A stretch of DNA of 57,396 bases, filler included, from Basidiobolus ranarum (Eukaryota), in assembly GCA_040143965.1 (NCBI GenBank). It is 7 parts of 7 records of this genome, joined end to end, with 100 filler letters (N's around TTAATTAATTAA, not from the genome) between each part and the next. Parts side by side here need not be neighbours in the genome. Positions count along the whole stretch, not along the records: positions 1 to 8,124 come from JASJQH010001014.1; 6 more parts are not named here. One strand, written 5' to 3'. This document shows, in pieces, positions 2 to 27,645 of this stretch. The position numbers were made by a program, and so were the translations under genes. The notes under the pieces were generated by a model. That model searched no databases. It had not been told where the DNA came from and was given only the letters and a program-made list of their open reading frames with translations. Numbering within the stretch: position 1 is the first letter of the stretch; each line of letters opens with the position of its first letter.

Positions 2-2157
2 CAAAAACAGCAGCAACAACATCCAGCTACGAATACATCACAATTACCTAATCAAATATCGCCACCAGGACAGCAGCTACGCCCTTCATTACCACCATCA
101 CAGCCACAGCCACAACCCTCGCCTTCACAGCAACCTAAAAAGCTACAGCAAGCAGCTCCTGTTTCTGTACCTCAAGTCCATAGCTCTCAGCATGTAACCA
201 AGTCAACTAATGTGCAAGAAAGCGATGCACAACTTGCGAACATGCCTAAAATATCCAAAGCATCAGGTAATGTGTCATCACCCGTCAGCGTGGGTATAAA
301 CGGCAAAGCTCCCGATAACAACTCTGAAGTTGCAAAGCCATCTATTAGTAGCCCAAAGTTACCCAAAACCCATAAAGCTACGACATCACCTAAGCCTGCA
401 AATCCTACACCAGTTGCACCGTCTCCACAAGCAAAGGTGCCCGAGCAATCTAAAAGTGCACAATCTAGCCCTCAAATACCGACCGACGATTCGTCGAAAC
501 CTCCGGAAATACAGGTTTGGTTTTTTCATCTTCAATAGTTCCTTCGTTTAAATCTGACAGAGTTTTCCAGGCTATTTCCATGCCTAGCACTCCTGCTACC
601 GATGGTGCTCCAAACTCGCTTGCAAATCCTGTTTCCTCCACTAGTGATAGCAATTCTAGTAGCCAATCCGCAAATCCTATTTCTTCTCCTAGTCCTAAGA
701 TCTCTAGTAATCAAAACACAAACCCTGTTTCCTCCACTAATATGAAGACCTCTAGTAGCCAACCCGCGAATCCTCTTGATATCGATCAATTTATCATGGA
801 CGAAGACTTTTCCAGTTTTTTTGGAAATGTCGATAGTGATAATCTAGGAATTGGAGAGGATATGGATGTCGACTCGTTTGGCAATATGGATTTCTTTTCA
901 AATATGGGATTCATGGGTGGATCAGGTACCCTGATTTAACAATTCATTGCATATAGAGCTGTACATTAATTCTTATTTTCTAATTAGATAACCCAGTAGA
1001 ATCACAATCAAACGGACAAGTGTTGCAACTTCATGCTCAATTAGCTGGGCACACCAACAAGGTAAGCACCTGTGCTATTTCAAGCAAAGGTGATTGGTTG
1101 GCCAGTGCTGGACATGACAAAAAGGTAAACATAATACGTTTATCCTATTTAACTACAATCACTTACTAGGATCGATTCGTGTAGGTTCTTATCTGGTCGA
1201 TATTTAATAAATCGTTGGCACACACATTGGATGGGCATACTCAACAGATAACCAATGCCAGATTTAGTCCAGATGATCGGCAGCTCTTGGCCACTGCATC
1301 ATACGATAAGACAGTGCGGATTTGGAATATTGGCTCCTCGAATAAAGTAGAGTGTGCGACAACCTTTACTGGTCATACACGATCAGTTACGGCAATTGAT
1401 TTTTGTCCAGTAGCTGGTAGTAATAGCTGCTGCTCGGTGGACGCAGAAGGGGAGTTAAAAGTCTGGAACATCTTTACCGGAATTTGCGAAAAGACAATTA
1501 GACTTGTAAGTTAACTGCGTAGACTTATGTTTGGAATACTGTATTTAATCGTTGTAACTTCAGTCTAGTACATCCAAATACTCCGGGTATTCGTCTAATC
1601 CTGTGCGTTACAACCCACAGGCGGGGTCCAAAGTTGCCACAGCGATATCCAATACACTAATATATATTGATGTGTTTGCCTGCGAAGATAATTCATCAGC
1701 TTCAGACCACCTTTCTACTCGCACCTTCGCTACTCAACACAGCAAAAATATATTCACGGTGGATTGGTCCTTGGACGGGTCTTTTCTGTTGACCGCTTCT
1801 GAAGACTTAATATGTGTATGGGATGCAACCACTTTTAAGGTTATATATACGCAGCAACCACAAACTGGAAAAATATCTAGTTGTTGTTTCCTGGCTAATA
1901 ACAATCCGACCTCCAACAGTAAAACACTTCGGGTAGCTATTGGGGAGTACGAAGTAATCTATATCTGGGCTTTTGCAGGTGGTGATGGTGAGGCCAAGTT
2001 GAAAGCAATGCCTGGTGCTCAGAATGGAGTGGTTTCCTGTTTGGCCAGTGGTTATATAAGTGATACATCGACTAATAATAAGAGTCCCATCTTACTATTG
2101 ACCAGCGCTTCCGGTTCAAAAGATGAAAATCTAAAGACTTGGATTGTTAGCACCTAG
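2..2157 (+). CDS. Q/P-rich + WD40 repeat protein, LEUNIG/LUH-like transcriptional corepressor (5' truncated by window start)
   Basis: Exons about <2-514, 571-925, 988-1124, 1185-1505, 1564-2157 joined by GT-AG introns keep one frame. N-terminal part QKQQQQHPAT...QPQPQP, acidic-aromatic segment DIDQFIMDEDFSSFF, then WD repeats GHTNKVSTCAISSKGDWLASAGHDKKVLIW, GHTQQITNARFSPDDRQLLATASYDKTVRIW, GHTRSVTAIDFCP. Confidence 0.85.
622..774 (+). repeat. 48-nt (16-aa) coding tandem repeat, about 3.2 copies
   Basis: ANPVSSTSDSNSSSQS / ANPISSPSPKISSNQN / TNPVSSTNMKTSSSQP / ANP; DNA unit begins gcaaatcctgtttcctccact. Confidence 0.85.
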
Positions 2158-3541: not shown

Positions 3542-6505
3542 ATGGATACCAACAGTAGTTCCACTGCTTCGACTGCTCCCCATGATGAGAATTCAACCTC
3601 ATCTGACTCAGTTTCCGCAGATTCGAAGCACTCGACACATCCCGATTCCTTTGATAGTTCTCTTAATGATAATGCCCACCCTATAGCGGAATCATCCCTT
3701 ACTTCGAATACCCACTTTAACTCAGATGAGTTCCCAGTTGATTTGAAACCCAATTCTGAGGAAGGTAATGTATGGAGTACCCTCGTTAAAGAGGAGGACT
3801 CTTCACTTACGCAAGAACCTTCTCAAGATTCCACTACCTTGCCGACTGGAGATCTCAATTTACCCTCCAGTCAATCCATCTCTCGAAGCACCTCAAATAA
3901 TCTACCAGAAACCAGCTTACAAAGCGATTCTTTTGCTACTGTTTCACATATGAATACTCCAACTATAAAAATTTCTCCGAGCTTCTATACCGCGGCAGAG
4001 TGTGGAAATGGCAATGCTCTATTTGAAATATTGAACGCCCTAGTGCAGGAGACCGGTTACTCGCCCCAAGATATAATAAATACACCCTCTAGCTCTACAG
4101 GATTGACAGTATTACATTATGCAGCTTCAAGAGGTCATGTAATCCTCATTGAGTATCTTTTAGATTCTGGAGCGGAGGTAGATCTAACAGACCGCGAAGG
4201 AGAGGTAAATAATTCTACTATGTACTCATATTTTATTCTTTAAAGAGTCCTAATTCTTTCATTACAATTACAGACTGCTTTATTAAAAGCCGCTTATAGT
4301 GGTCACCTAGATGTAGTCAAATGTCTAGTTGGTAATTATGCCGTTGTGCATCAGCAAGACAAAGATGGTTGGACTGCACTACACAACGCATGCTCTGGAG
4401 GGCATTTGGAAGTGGTAAAGTGGCTATTGAAAAACACAGCTGTCGATGTAAACGTGAGAAGTAAAATGAATCATACTCCCTTGAGTACGCTATTTCAGCT
4501 TATTTGTACAAAGTAATACAACAACTCAAATTTTCATATGTTTAGTGAATGCTGCTTCCAGAGGATACTTGGAAATCATAATCTACTTATTAGATGAAGC
4601 CGATGCAGACTCGTCAATTCGAAACGATTTTGGTGAGAAAGCATATGATGTCGCAGCGGCTAGAACGGAGGCTCAAATATGTGAAATACTTGATGATAAC
4701 GAAAAAGAGGCACAAGGTATCTAGTTGCGAAGCTGATAATCAAAGATTTTGTATTAAATACTAAACCATATTACTAGATGATTATGACACTGTTAGAGAT
4801 CACTTGACTGTTTTAATAATATTGAATGAAAACCAACGTTCTCCTCAAACTCTGCTTTCTCGATTGGCATCGCCTCGATTTTCAATTGGGACTTTATCGG
4901 AAATTGGTGTTCACCCATGGACTCTGGTCAATGGTAGCCCCACCTCCAAGGAGACCATTCAATTACCTTTTTCAAATAGTGAGACTGGTTTAGAAGAAGA
5001 GTGGTTTTGGCTGACTGATTGGCAAATTGACCTGGGGCATACAAAAGTAGATCCTGAAGAAGGTTGGCAGTACGCCTATTCCTTTGATGCACCCGAAAGT
5101 AAATGGTATAGATCACCACCAGATGCCGGTTTGGGTAGTAGCTGGGTGAGAAGAAGAAGATGGATTAGAGTCATGAAGCGTAAATTAGATGTCTACAATA
5201 TGCATATTGATTTACCTTCTCCTAGTCAAAATAAGAATGTCATTTCGGCCCCTATCCAGTTAGGCGAACCTTCTAGCTCTGCTAACAGACCTAGTGCCAT
5301 TGCAATTCAGCTAAGTAACCATTTCGGTAGGTTATCTTTCTCTCAAGTTGGTGGTTTCGACATTTCTAATCAATCAATTATAGACTGCCGCGCTGACACC
5401 AATTTGAGCGAACATCAAACAAGCCGAAGCCTTCAAGCCTCCGATAGAGGTTCTCTTCCCCGTTCTAATACTGGTATTTCCACTTGATCTCTACTAAAAG
5501 GAACCCGAGATTGAATAATAACCAAACGTGCCTTTTATAGAAAATGCACAACAACGTTTTTCCACTCCTACTTCTCGTACTAGATCCAACACGATGCCGT
5601 CTATAAATAGGACACGCGCGCCACAAACTCCGGATTCATCATCTTCAAATACTAATACGACTGCGGGAGTGCCTTCACTATCACTTCGTGCAGCAAACTC
5701 TTCATCAACACCACTTTCTCCCTTATCTCCATCGCTATGGGAGTCAGATGACGAGGCATCAGACTGTCGTCAATGTGGCCGCCGATTTATGCTATTCTTT
5801 CGTCGCCATCATTGTCGGTACGGATATTTCATTTAGTTACCTTGAGATCTAACCTTGATGTTGACTTGCATTTGCTATGGAATAGGCGTTGTGGACTTGT
5901 TTTTTGTGATAGGTGTACATCTTCTCGCTTTCCTTTTCTCAATCCGGCTTCCATTGGTGATACTACAGTCGCATATCAGCGTGCCTGTGACACATGTTTT
6001 GCACTGTTGAACTCGCTACCAAAGAATTCAAGCCAATTAGTCACATCTTCGTTAATGAGCAGAAGTAATAGTCAAGCCAGTTTAATGAATGAGTGCCCGG
6101 TTTGCTTTACATCTTTGCAGAACACATTCATGAGTAGAGAAGCCCAAGAACGGCACGTTAAAGAGTGCTTGGAAAAAAGGGAATTTAACTCTTCTCCTAA
6201 AGGACCAAGATATTTGGGTGAGTGTATAGCGATCAACATCCAGTGAACCATTTTACTTATTCATTATATTCAGTTTTTAAGTTGAAAGAAGATTCCAATC
6301 TTTTGGGACAAGAATGCCCAATATGCTTCGAAGAGTTTGAACAAGGTGTGTCTCTTTTACATTGCACTAATGATAACGCTGATAACTGATGTTAGAATAC
6401 TTAGGTGAAACACTGGCTCGACTCACCTGTCTTTGCATATTTCATCGAGAATGCATTGATTCTTGGTTCGATCGTGGTAAACAGTGTCCATTCCATTCAG
6501 GCTAA
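3542..6505 (+). CDS. Ankyrin repeat + DysF (Pex24/dysferlin) + FYVE + RING protein (Pib1-like C-terminus, putative PI3P-binding E3 ligase)
   Basis: Exons about 3542-4204, 4274-4484, 4546-4716, 4778-5473, 5541-5817, 5886-6217, 6274-6345, 6405-6505. Ankyrin motifs TVLHYAASRGH, TALLKAAYSGH, TALHNACSGGH; DysF ENQR...WFWLTDWQID...EEGWQYA...WVRRRRWIR; FYVE WESD..CRQC..F..FFRRHHCRRCGLVFC..C; RING CPICFEEF...CLCIFHRECIDSWF..CPFH. Confidence 0.9.
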
Positions 6506-8124: not shown

Positions 8125-8224
8125 NNNNNNNNNNNNNNNNNNNNNNNNNNNNNNNNNNNNNNNNNNNNTTAATTAATTAANNNNNNNNNNNNNNNNNNNN
8201 NNNNNNNNNNNNNNNNNNNNNNNN
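8125..8224. other. assembly gap spacer N44-TTAATTAATTAA-N44
   Basis: Exactly 100 nt; the 12-mer puts stop codons in all six frames; the same spacer recurs six times. Confidence 0.98.
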
Positions 8225-8240
8225 GAATTAAATCATCTAG

Positions 8241-9187
8241 GCCGATACAACTAGAGACTACTTGAAAAATGTAGAACAAGGGCCTTACCAGTTACCTGAA
8301 GCCCCTGTCATTATGTCACCTGATCGCCTCTTTACGTCTTTACATCGGTAAGAGATAATCTAGTAGTTGGCTTAGTTAAATGGAGATCTTAATGGATATA
8401 ATTACTATAGGGAAGTGATCATGAGACAGCCTCAGATCTTCAAAATGGCATGCTTACGTGATATCAAACAACTCTTTGGGGGACATAATCCATTTTACGC
8501 AGGGTTTGGAAATCGAATTACTGTATGTATTTTATTGATGAAAACTCGCAGTATACTTCATTGAATTGACGAAATTTCATTTTTAGGACGCATTATCTTA
8601 CCGAAGTGTTGGTGTTCCTGTATCACGTATTTTCACTATAGAATATTCTGGGGATCTTAAACTTGAATTACTTGCGGGATACATTTCATCGTTAGTATAT
8701 AGCTTTAGATTCCAGAAAAGAAATATATTAACATCTCTCTCGTATTAGATACATCAAACTCAATGATCTGGTGGATCAGATATTTCCACCTCAAACCATC
8801 GCACTTGAAGCCGAATATAATGATTGGAATTACTGGAAAACGGACTTTGCAGAGATCGATATTCCGGAATTAGATGAACCCGAGCCACCGGTTAATGACC
8901 CATTGAAACCGGAGAACAAAAGAATCGGAATGCTACAAAGTTTAACTCGGATGGCATCTCGTAGTACGCTTTCATTGTATTACAACAAATCTGATGAGGA
9001 ATATGAAAGTAATCTATATCACAATTAAGATGAATTATCATTCAATGAAGAGGAGGAGGAGGAAGAAGAGGAGACAGAGAAGGATCCATTGGACGATACT
9101 ACAATCTCTATTGAAGAAACATCTGAGAATGAAGATATTAATGATGATATGGTTGCCTCGATTGACTTTAATGAATATCCATATTAA
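8241..9187 (+). CDS. PAH1: Lipin/Pah1/Ned1 phosphatidate phosphatase, C-terminal (LNS2) part; 5' end lost in gap
   Basis: Spliced [88 protein letters not shown]...|[23 protein letters not shown] matches the lipin C-LIP region. Ends at 9028 (TAA) or at 9187 if 8964-9029 is spliced out. Confidence 0.9.
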
Positions 9188-9781
9188 ATTGAATTGAATT
9201 GAATAGATCAGCAAACAATATATTATAGATACTTGCTTTCTCTAAACAAATTCACTCTAGATCCTTCACGTGAAGCAGATTGCTAGTTATATCTGGTGAA
9301 GTAACATTCCCAACCACCCAGTCAATAAATTACAACATATACGATGTAAGGTAATCATGGATTTTTAAACTGTTCTTTATAAATTAATGAATAATTCGAT
9401 TCCTCACCCACTCCCACTTTTTGGATTTTACTATACTATATACAAGAGTGCAACCGAGTTAATATTGAATTATATGAAAGAAAAAAGAATTAGTCAACTT
9501 TCGAAATAAACTATACCCTATATAAAAGAATGTGAATGAACTAGAGGAGTGAAGGTAAAACTGTTTAAACATCCCTCCCCTCCCAAAAAACTATTCTTGA
9601 CCAAAGCATATCAGGGTTTAAAAGGGAATCCATAATTAGATGTATATGTGTGTGTGCGTTGCGTGTTAGAAATGGATCTTTTGAAGTACAATTTCATTTC
9701 TCTCCTCGAAATTAAATTTTGTTCAACAAGTCAAAAGAGGATATTTAGACCAACGATTGGATGTTCAAAGGTATACCAATT

Positions 9782-26097: not shown

Positions 26098-27645
26098 TTA
26101 CTGAACTAGCTCATCTAAGATTTCCCAGATTTCATCTTGTTCATATATAGGTCTCCCTTGTGAATCCAAGGAGCCGGGCACTCTGATGGCAACAATGCCT
26201 AGTTTCTGAATCTCTTCAAGATCCACAACAATCTGAGAATTATCCAAGTAGATTAAATGTGTAATGAATGTTCTAACTGGCTCAGGATCAATACAAGGTG
26301 AAACCGGGAAAGTCAAAGCTTGTTCTGCTAGTACGGAGGGTGATTTACATTCTGCATGTATCGCAGAGGCATCTACCTGTCTTGAAAAGTTTAGGCCATC
26401 CGTGATCGCTTGAATGAAATCGATGGCTGTATATCCTTCCGTTTCTCTATCATGCGACCCGTTCAACATCAAAATCTTGTTACGGAGTGAAGGTGAATTG
26501 GCGATAGCATTTCCGACTCCACGAAGTACCAAGCAGGGCATTATCGAAGTATAAAGAGATCCAATAGAATAAAGTAAAGTGTGCTTCGAATTAAGAAATC
26601 GCACACACTTTGGATTGGCAAGAGGAAATATTTCTTGCCCATATTCATTGATGTAGTATATACGTCTAATACGTGCTGGTAGTTTTCCACAGTCGTGCTT
26701 GTCAAATATAATATTCGAATTAACCTTAGCCAGCATGTGGTTATCACACGCTCCGTTTGCAATTGTATCCCCCGCTCTCGGTTGAACGGATGGATGTGAG
26801 ATTTCGCACTGCCCAACGATGGTTGACTCGTCGTCTAGTAAAGCAGCAATAGTGACCATGTGGTTGGTACTAATCATAGGGATCACTGTAGTAGGCTCAG
26901 AGATACCGGTTATTGCAGCAAAGAGAAATATAGCTGCTTCTAGAGAGTTGAAGAACAATCTAGCACCAGTAAGGAAAAAGTTCCCGATGCTACCATTTCT
27001 ATAGTCAAAGCGTTTATGTGCACGCTTGAGTATTTCAAAATGAAACAACGTTAAGAAACCTCGTATCGTTTCCTTTTTTTCCACTGATATTTCATTCCAT
27101 AATCTAGGATAGAAAATAAATTACTCATTTTGATAAGGGTTAGATGATGTCTTTACTGGAGAACATCATACCTGTGAGTACCCTCAACAATCTGCGTCCA
27201 TTCTAGTCGAATATATGCCTCTTCTCCATCAGCAGGTAGGCGGTAACTTAACAGTTCTTTTATTACTTTACGCTCAGCTATTGCCTCCGTATCGCCATCT
27301 TCAGTGTTAATTAATCTGGTTAGACGCGACCTCAAATCTCCAATACTTGGCCCGCCAGTAACTCTAAGAATTTCACTCTGAGTACAAATGAGTCATATGA
27401 ACATCAAAAACTTGGATTTTGGATATTAAAAGTGAACTTACTGTTGAGCCACCATTATCCGAAACACCAAGGACATAGGAAATATTTATCGTTAGTGATT
27501 GTAGAGCTTGGCATAGTGAGTTACAAGCTGAGCCGCCGGAAAAGACAAAAATTGAACGAGTTGAAGGTTTATGACAACAAGGAGTCGGAGAAGAGGAGCG
27601 ATTAGAACGAGTTTTGATGGACCCGTTGACAGAAGAAACGGACAT
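26098..27645 (-). CDS. CofD/YvcK (UPF0052) family protein, yeast YNL011C-like
   Basis: Four exons; VFSGGSACN, SDNGGST, GGPSIGDLRSRL, NGSIGNFFLTGARLF, VGQCEISHP, YSIGSLYTSIMPCL, LNGSHDRET. Confidence 0.88.

Follow-up and report, generated by a model that had tools for sequence, protein, structure and literature searches.

The first 2,157 nucleotides of the window, by which we mean the whole 57,396-nucleotide stretch of Basidiobolus ranarum DNA analyzed here, hold the 3' part of a five-exon gene (positions 2–2157, plus strand). Its open frame of 639 codons ends with a stop codon at 2155–2157, and its exons are joined by four GT-AG introns of 56–62 nt, all lying on the same strand. The NCBI model of the gene, a hypothetical protein of 559 residues (P0001), has identical splices and starts at an internal methionine. 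The first exon (2–514), which is open towards the start of the contig, encodes the end of a poly-Q tract and a low-complexity linker rich in Q, P and S; it has low pLDDT and no Pfam family was found in it by a Pfam search. An intron of 56 nt in phase 0 follows (515–570), whose position is matched in four paralogues. The second exon (571–925) encodes a linker rich in S, P and N and, directly ahead of the propeller, an acidic-aromatic segment (760–924), which has four further copies in the genome with 71–79% identity, three of them then running into a stop. The next intron (926–987, 62 nt) lies where three WD40-less paralogues end instead. The three remaining exons, separated by introns of 60 nt (1125–1184) and 58 nt (1506–1563), all match the Pfam WD40 family (PF00400) above its cut-off: one carries the first WD40 repeat (988–1124, 29.1 bits), one canonical repeats (1185–1505, 60.2 bits) and the last the divergent C-terminal half of the propeller with the stop codon (1564–2157, 30.9 bits). 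In the spliced product a Q/S/P-rich linker leads through the acidic-aromatic segment into the propeller, and the nine motifs quoted in the initial annotation, which had read the gene as a full-length orthologue of the plant corepressor LEUNIG (LUG), all occur in this frame and in the same order.

An AlphaFold2 model of P0001 contains an all-strand domain at residues 222–557, in which most blocks of ten residues have a pLDDT of 79–96 and four loop blocks one of 58–70; the N-terminal part is of low confidence. The top PDB matches of this model in Foldseek were WDR5 propellers, and searches of the PDB by sequence and by fold yielded generic propellers only, such as WDR5. The protein has a single, C-terminal WD40 propeller, and Pfam detected no DNA-binding domain in its readable part. 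A central Q-rich region is present, as the window opens in poly-Q and an extended Q/M-rich stretch occurs in a paralogue (P0002).

The window and contig C1014 start at the same base, which lies inside the gene, within the poly-Q tract. The LisH/LUFS head of this copy is for that reason not readable, and neither is its being full-length. No exact overlap of this contig end with another contig was found; near-overlaps of C1027 with the window (20/23) and with C10029 (19/21) were set aside, as they fall in poly-Q codons. The downstream neighbor (3542–6246, plus strand) encodes ankyrin repeats and a weak FYVE match and shows no visible link to the LEUNIG-type gene. Positions 8125–57396 are other contigs joined by runs of N. 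In the rest of the window, Pfam recognized a DPBB/Barwin protein, a chitin-binding polysaccharide deacetylase, a protein kinase C-like gene, a CofD-like protein (26098–27120), an MFS transporter, an arrestin, a CUE protein and an AreA-like GATA factor.

WD40 searches of protein databases returned no named plant protein among the best 120 and 150 matches listed, both sets being crowded with multi-repeat WD40 proteins, and a search of 8000 candidates (32 hits) gave no land-plant LEUNIG. We therefore took plant sequences from metagenome loci, keeping 80 of the 249 loci obtained in a LUFS scan of metagenome contigs. One of these (L047) clusters at 90% with a Setaria “transcriptional corepressor LEUNIG_HOMOLOG”. 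Another (L074) is a plant-type LUFS-WD40 mRNA product of 931 residues, in which all eight LEUNIG motifs listed in the initial annotation are found collinearly; since it has no exact look-up match, we infer its identity as a LEUNIG.

P0001 aligns to L074 with 30% identity over 377 residues (E 3e-40). With the propeller of P0001 as query, the top matches were to the fungal family described below, followed by the eukaryotic locus L087 (150 bits) and then by nine plant proteins, a chytrid protein and the locus L081 at 122–137 bits; generic repeats (≤108 bits) and Tup1-type proteins (67 bits) came last. A profile built from the fungal WD40 domains matched all nine plant proteins with 143–166 bits in the best single stretch, with a best score of 96 bits among 287 other proteins (267 of them with WD40) and of 50 bits for the Tup1 type. 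In a structure search of the Atlas, the ten matches listed were all Streptophyta clusters, four of them named LEUNIG or LUH (LEUNIG_HOMOLOG); the Atlas feature search returned generic WD40 clusters only.

Searches from the plant side discriminated less well. A plant-built WD40 profile scored generic multi-repeat proteins at up to 155 bits, compared with 105–141 bits for 15 of 17 fungal proteins and 64 and 24 bits for the other two, and its C-terminal half favors generic repeats (77 bits, against ≤37 for the fungal proteins). With L074 as query, generic repeats (140, 135 and 134 bits) tied with P0001 (134 bits). An exon-by-exon genome search placed a Prp19-like exon first, at 68.2 bits versus 66.9 and 66.3 for the window gene exon; when spliced products were compared, the Prp19-like protein reached 95 bits and that of the window gene 134. 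In the reciprocal search that the initial annotation had proposed, query and profile from the fungal side rank plant LEUNIG above generic WD40 proteins, and the plant-built profile and the L074 query do not discriminate. Profiles of the acidic segments of plants and fungi gave no cross-match either. Together with a WD40 identity of only 30% and the failure of plant-built profiles and BLAST to rank the fungal family clearly over near-consensus repeats, this speaks for plants and fungi having each joined a LUFS domain to a generic WD40 domain, the likeness between them consisting of consensus WD40 residues. We nevertheless consider such independent fusions very unlikely, given the WD40 tree and the position of the acidic segment, whose distance to the start of the propeller is 10–26 residues in 12 of 13 proteins from fungi and plants.

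This tree was computed from 40 of 52 prepared rows over 293 columns. The 12 rows left out were three fungal, two plant, one TBL1-like, four generic and two divergent WD40 sequences from the B. ranarum genome itself; Groucho and TOPLESS rows are absent. Fourteen fungal, seven plant and two unplaced LUFS-WD40 rows lie on one side of a branch with values of 100/99, in a tree holding six generic rows and outgroups whose repeats may be out of register and which include four long branches. We assigned the outgroup labels (Tup1, TBL1, Prp19, Cdc20, RACK1, Sqt1, Utp12, F-box WD) from our reading of the sequences, and we take P0312, an NCBI “general transcription repressor”, to be Tup1. The two unplaced rows are eukaryotic loci with LUFS and WD40 from outside plants and fungi, L081:583–3598 (L083 and L084 have equal WD40 scores) and L087:1–2331, for which a “protist” origin would be a guess; their falling on the same side speaks further against independent fusions. 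Of the refuting outcome envisaged in the initial annotation, the part in which the WD40 domain groups with Tup1 or generic WD40 proteins did not occur: the domain groups with LEUNIG/LUH, and an AU test rejected a topology in which the fungal rows were held together with P0312 (p-AU 0.000135).

Within the tree, fungi alone and plants alone form groups at 100/99 each, neither nested in the other, and the two unplaced rows fall between them, nearer to the fungi (fungi plus unplaced rows, 98/95). Basidiobolus groups with Syncephalis (98/92), and Mortierellaceae and Mucorales each group as expected. All three observations stand against LEUNIG having been passed horizontally between early fungi and green plants, a scenario that would account for our having found named LUFS-WD40 proteins from land plants and non-Dikarya fungi only; it is very unlikely, and of the alternatives considered we give it the least credence. 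From its sequence, the window gene is very probably the fungal orthologue of plant LEUNIG/LEUNIG_HOMOLOG. The tree, the AU test, the structural neighbors in the Atlas and the fungal profile uphold the orthology of the WD40 domain; as for the LUFS head that a full-length orthologue requires, it is seen in seven homologues and in paralogues of the same genome, the window copy being cut by the start of its contig.

These seven homologues are named proteins of non-Dikarya fungi (Calcarisporiella, Pilobolus, Hesseltinella, Chlamydoabsidia, Sporodiniella, Mortierella and Irineochytrium) in which our own profiles found a LUFS domain near the N-terminus and the same WD40 domain at the C-terminus of a single chain. 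Full-length fungal members have 937–1453 residues; other database models of fungal homologues have no LUFS domain and may or may not be cut. Among the best 120 matches listed for the WD40 domain of P0002 were at least nine further proteins with 41–47% identity over 97–98% of the query (two from Syncephalis, one each from Calcarisporiella and Pilobolus, four from Mortierellaceae and one more). In a second search, homologues from Hesseltinella, Chlamydoabsidia, Rhizopus, Sporodiniella, Mortierella and the chytrid Irineochytrium joined these, and further searches contributed those of B. meristosporus, Actinomortierella and Benjaminiella. When the last exon was the sole query, two B. ranarum proteins were the only close matches (2/15). 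The family thus occurs in Zoopagomycota, Mucoromycota and a chytrid, so that the gene is indeed retained in an early-diverging fungus, as had been proposed, without being peculiar to Basidiobolus. The accompanying statement that LUFS proteins of Dikarya lack a WD40 domain agrees with the nine named proteins we retrieved, in none of which one was present.

Many B. ranarum genes occur as diverged duplicates, and the present one belongs to such a set. The genome contains five close LUFS exons, 86–100% identical (two on C7819 and one each on C10230, C10534 and C207), and the LUFS exon of a paralogue matched LisH in Pfam and the SSDP/SSBP2 domains of known structure at E ~1e-10. Two more distant LUFS exons have an insert of about 80 residues (C1027:5622–8048 and C865:6730–9176; L030, L031). 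This insert sits inside the LUFS domain and resembles the longer spacing seen in two ascomycete proteins; both genes run off their contigs in poly-Q, and their C-termini were not found. On C7819 (L033), a contig of 8.6 kb, two LUFS paralogues lie head to head and have in common a stretch with identical translation, as C10230 and C207 have another; either recent duplication or collapsed assembly would produce such stretches. The LUFS copy on C207 (approximately 8190–9500, minus strand; L029) seems to break off past the second Q-rich exon and is either a truncated gene or a misjoin.

The LUFS domain on C7819 is joined to a middle segment, and C6912 joins that segment (79% identity) to WD40. The acidic segment is present in five copies (window, C6912, C10029, C7340 and C365), two of which, those of the window and C6912, continue by splicing into WD40 exons; the same two were the only matches to the last exon in the genome. 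The other three (L145–L150) have the preceding intron in common and stop 4–5 codons past the next intron point of the window gene. A search covering the whole of C10029 and the initial 9 kb of both C7340 and C365 found no WD40 match, and its control recovered the three window exons. Since these tails stop just past the acidic segment, the loss of a propeller is visible among close paralogues. They form one group in a tree of six rows (100/98), and, as the homologues in other fungi and in plants have the propeller, the simplest reading would be a single recent loss followed by duplication. The ends of C7819 and C7340 overlap by 25/28 outside poly-Q, which is likely to be the join of a WD40-less copy.

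In view of these duplicates, the window copy could itself be a headless or decaying one without LUFS, acting as a WD40 competitor at most. It is true that contig C1014 holds no LUFS head, that only three middle segments were found for five heads and five tails, that the head on C207 apparently breaks off and that several database models of homologues have no LUFS. However, the frame stays open as far as the contig reaches, its end falling inside poly-Q as do the breaks in other copies, the five LUFS heads match the number of acidic tails, and LUFS is present in all candidate heads found. The WD40 domain of the window copy moreover has a short branch (0.05) and a counterpart in B. meristosporus with 86% identity. 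We therefore judge a headless duplicate to be very unlikely indeed and continue to regard the gene as very probably a LEUNIG orthologue, for which a LUFS head is predicted.

The initial annotation had also proposed a search for a SEUSS/Ldb-type partner, and the genome indeed has LIM_bind (PF01803) matches over the cut-off at three loci (C6876, C380 and C108). An intron interrupts the partner segment, and solved animal homologues exist for the pair of LUFS and LIM_bind. The Tup_N head of Tup1 was likewise found at three loci, all apart from the window gene (C7711, C7266 and C8853), and together with the rejection of a clade of fungal and Tup1-type WD40 domains in the AU test against grouping with P0312 this eliminates the window gene as Tup1. 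The architectures of the two are alike, as Tup1 and Groucho also combine an N-terminal oligomerization domain, a linker and a C-terminal WD40 propeller.

Fungal family members resemble Arabidopsis LEUNIG/LUH in the order of their parts (LUFS, Q-rich region, acidic segment, one WD40 propeller), and the paralogue LUFS exon is 50–57% identical to plant-type loci. Their WD40 domain, with only some 30% identity to the plant one, differs by loop insertions and a C-terminal half that has diverged, and the Q-rich middle of full-length members is longer. To the Dikarya proteins Flo8, Mss11, Som1/SomA and Adn2/Adn3 they are similar in the LUFS head, the Q-rich middle, the acidic-aromatic segment and a short S/P-KR-x-R motif resembling the nuclear signal of SomA. 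The main difference is that the window copy runs on into the WD40 domain, whereas the Dikarya proteins, like the three short paralogues, end at the acidic segment. Animal SSDP/SSBP2, which acts with LDB1/Chip, has a homologous LUFS domain (6s9r, 8hib, 6tyd, 6iwv; E 8e-11 to 4e-10; these entries cover the N-terminal domains), and SSDP/SSBP proteins are not known to have a WD40 propeller.

The initial annotation had suggested that Flo8/Som1 derive from a LUG-like ancestor by loss of the WD40 domain. In 13 of 17 WD40-less LUFS proteins, the most acidic-aromatic window of 40 residues, which is a measure of composition and not of sequence homology, lies at most 14 residues from the C-terminus; the four exceptions are a protein annotated as partial, one from Pigoraptor, one in which the distance is 47 residues and one whose tail is odd. 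This position, equivalent to that ahead of the propeller in the WD40-bearing proteins, fits Flo8/Som1 having been truncated where the three Basidiobolus copies were. The LUFS domain by itself is silent on the matter: the backbone of a tree of LUFS domains alone, with 34 rows and 71 columns (two proteins that the motif pattern missed were left out), was not resolved, nor were the insert-bearing genes on C1027 and C865 placed, so that it neither supports nor refutes such an origin and leaves the events without an order. The suggestion thus agrees with the position of the acidic tail and with the loss among B. ranarum paralogues, and the Dikarya genes could also go back to an earlier duplicate that had no WD40 domain, for which the insert-bearing pair is a candidate.

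Two LUFS proteins from outside fungi and land plants are of note in this context. That of the green alga [Myrmecia] bisecta (P0307) ends at the acidic tail without a WD40 domain, possibly a further loss, and that of the holozoan Pigoraptor vietnamica (P0304), which may be incomplete, has neither acidic tail nor WD40 domain.

In our best reading, LEUNIG is older than the split between plants and fungi and was shortened repeatedly. We lean towards the broader view that the entire LUFS family descends from a protein with LUFS, Q-rich region, acidic segment and WD40 propeller in this order, which would predate the divergence of plants from the lineages of fungi and animals and not be an invention of green plants, and that Flo8, Mss11, Som1 and Adn2/Adn3 as well as animal SSDP are truncations at or before the acidic segment, which were made more than once.

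By analogy to its relatives, the protein most likely works as a transcriptional co-regulator that does not itself bind DNA. The gene would have come down by vertical descent from an early eukaryote and have been retained, among fungi, in chytrids, Zoopagomycota and Mucoromycota, encoding a LUFS head, a disordered Q-rich middle, an acidic-aromatic segment and one WD40 propeller. As in plant, yeast and animal relatives, the LUFS head would oligomerize and dock on an adaptor of the SEUSS/Ldb/PtaB/Mfg1 type. The published LUH data describe LUFS as sufficient for binding of LUH to SLK (PMC4015341), and SomA-PtaB and Flo8-Mfg1 are described in PMC4631450 as fungal complexes of a LUFS protein with a partner of the LIM-domain-binding family, to which the LIM_bind genes found here belong. 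The propeller may bind transcription factors directly, as the WD domain of LUH does in sufficing for AP1 binding (PMC12643531), while the acidic segment and the Q-rich region may recruit chromatin or Mediator machinery. The output would be repression or activation depending on context, with repression about as likely as not to dominate; both the repressor activity and the binding of partners are projected from the relatives. LUH both represses and activates (PMC12643531), and Adn2 and Mss11 group with LUG/LUH and have a first LisH helix that represses in isolation (PMC9564828), so that “co-regulator” is a safer term than “corepressor”. Copies that stop past the acidic segment would act like the Flo8/Som1 activators, Dikarya LUFS proteins having been published mainly as activators.

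That LUG, Flo8 and SSDP have the LUFS domain in common, and that LUFS and LIM_bind proteins form pairs in fungi, is already published. In PANTHER and InterPro, LEUNIG and Flo8 belong to a common family, and fungal proteins may hence bear automatic labels to this effect. No report of a LUFS-WD40 protein in fungi was among the literature matches listed, which cover subscription papers thinly, and the word “LEUNIG” is absent from a part of the supplement of PMC10406608. A family study of LUG and SEU from 2026 samples streptophyte algae and land plants, and its main text has “fungi” once, in the name of a kit (PMC13395540). Copley (2016) saw no obvious WD40 orthologue of Groucho or Tup in plants and describes TOPLESS as having two propellers (PMC4943189), compared with one in the window protein.

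The fungal family pushes LEUNIG back beyond the green lineage, the range sampled in the 2026 study, and plant LUG-SEU, fungal Flo8/Som1-Mfg1/PtaB and animal SSDP-LDB would be united under one ancestral architecture. Since Flo8 and Som1 govern adhesion and filamentous growth in Dikarya, Mucorales and Basidiobolus may use a differently built regulator for these processes. The sister copies without a propeller suggest how shorter regulators of yeasts and molds, such as Flo8, arose. Basidiobolus holds both states, with and without propeller, at 71–79% identity in the tail, and such close paralogues offer a direct test of what the WD40 domain contributes, which also bears on why LUFS proteins are termed repressors in plants and activators in yeasts. 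If the ancestral architecture is as we propose, loss of the propeller would act as a repeatable switch that turns a factor-binding corepressor into an adaptor-dependent activator.
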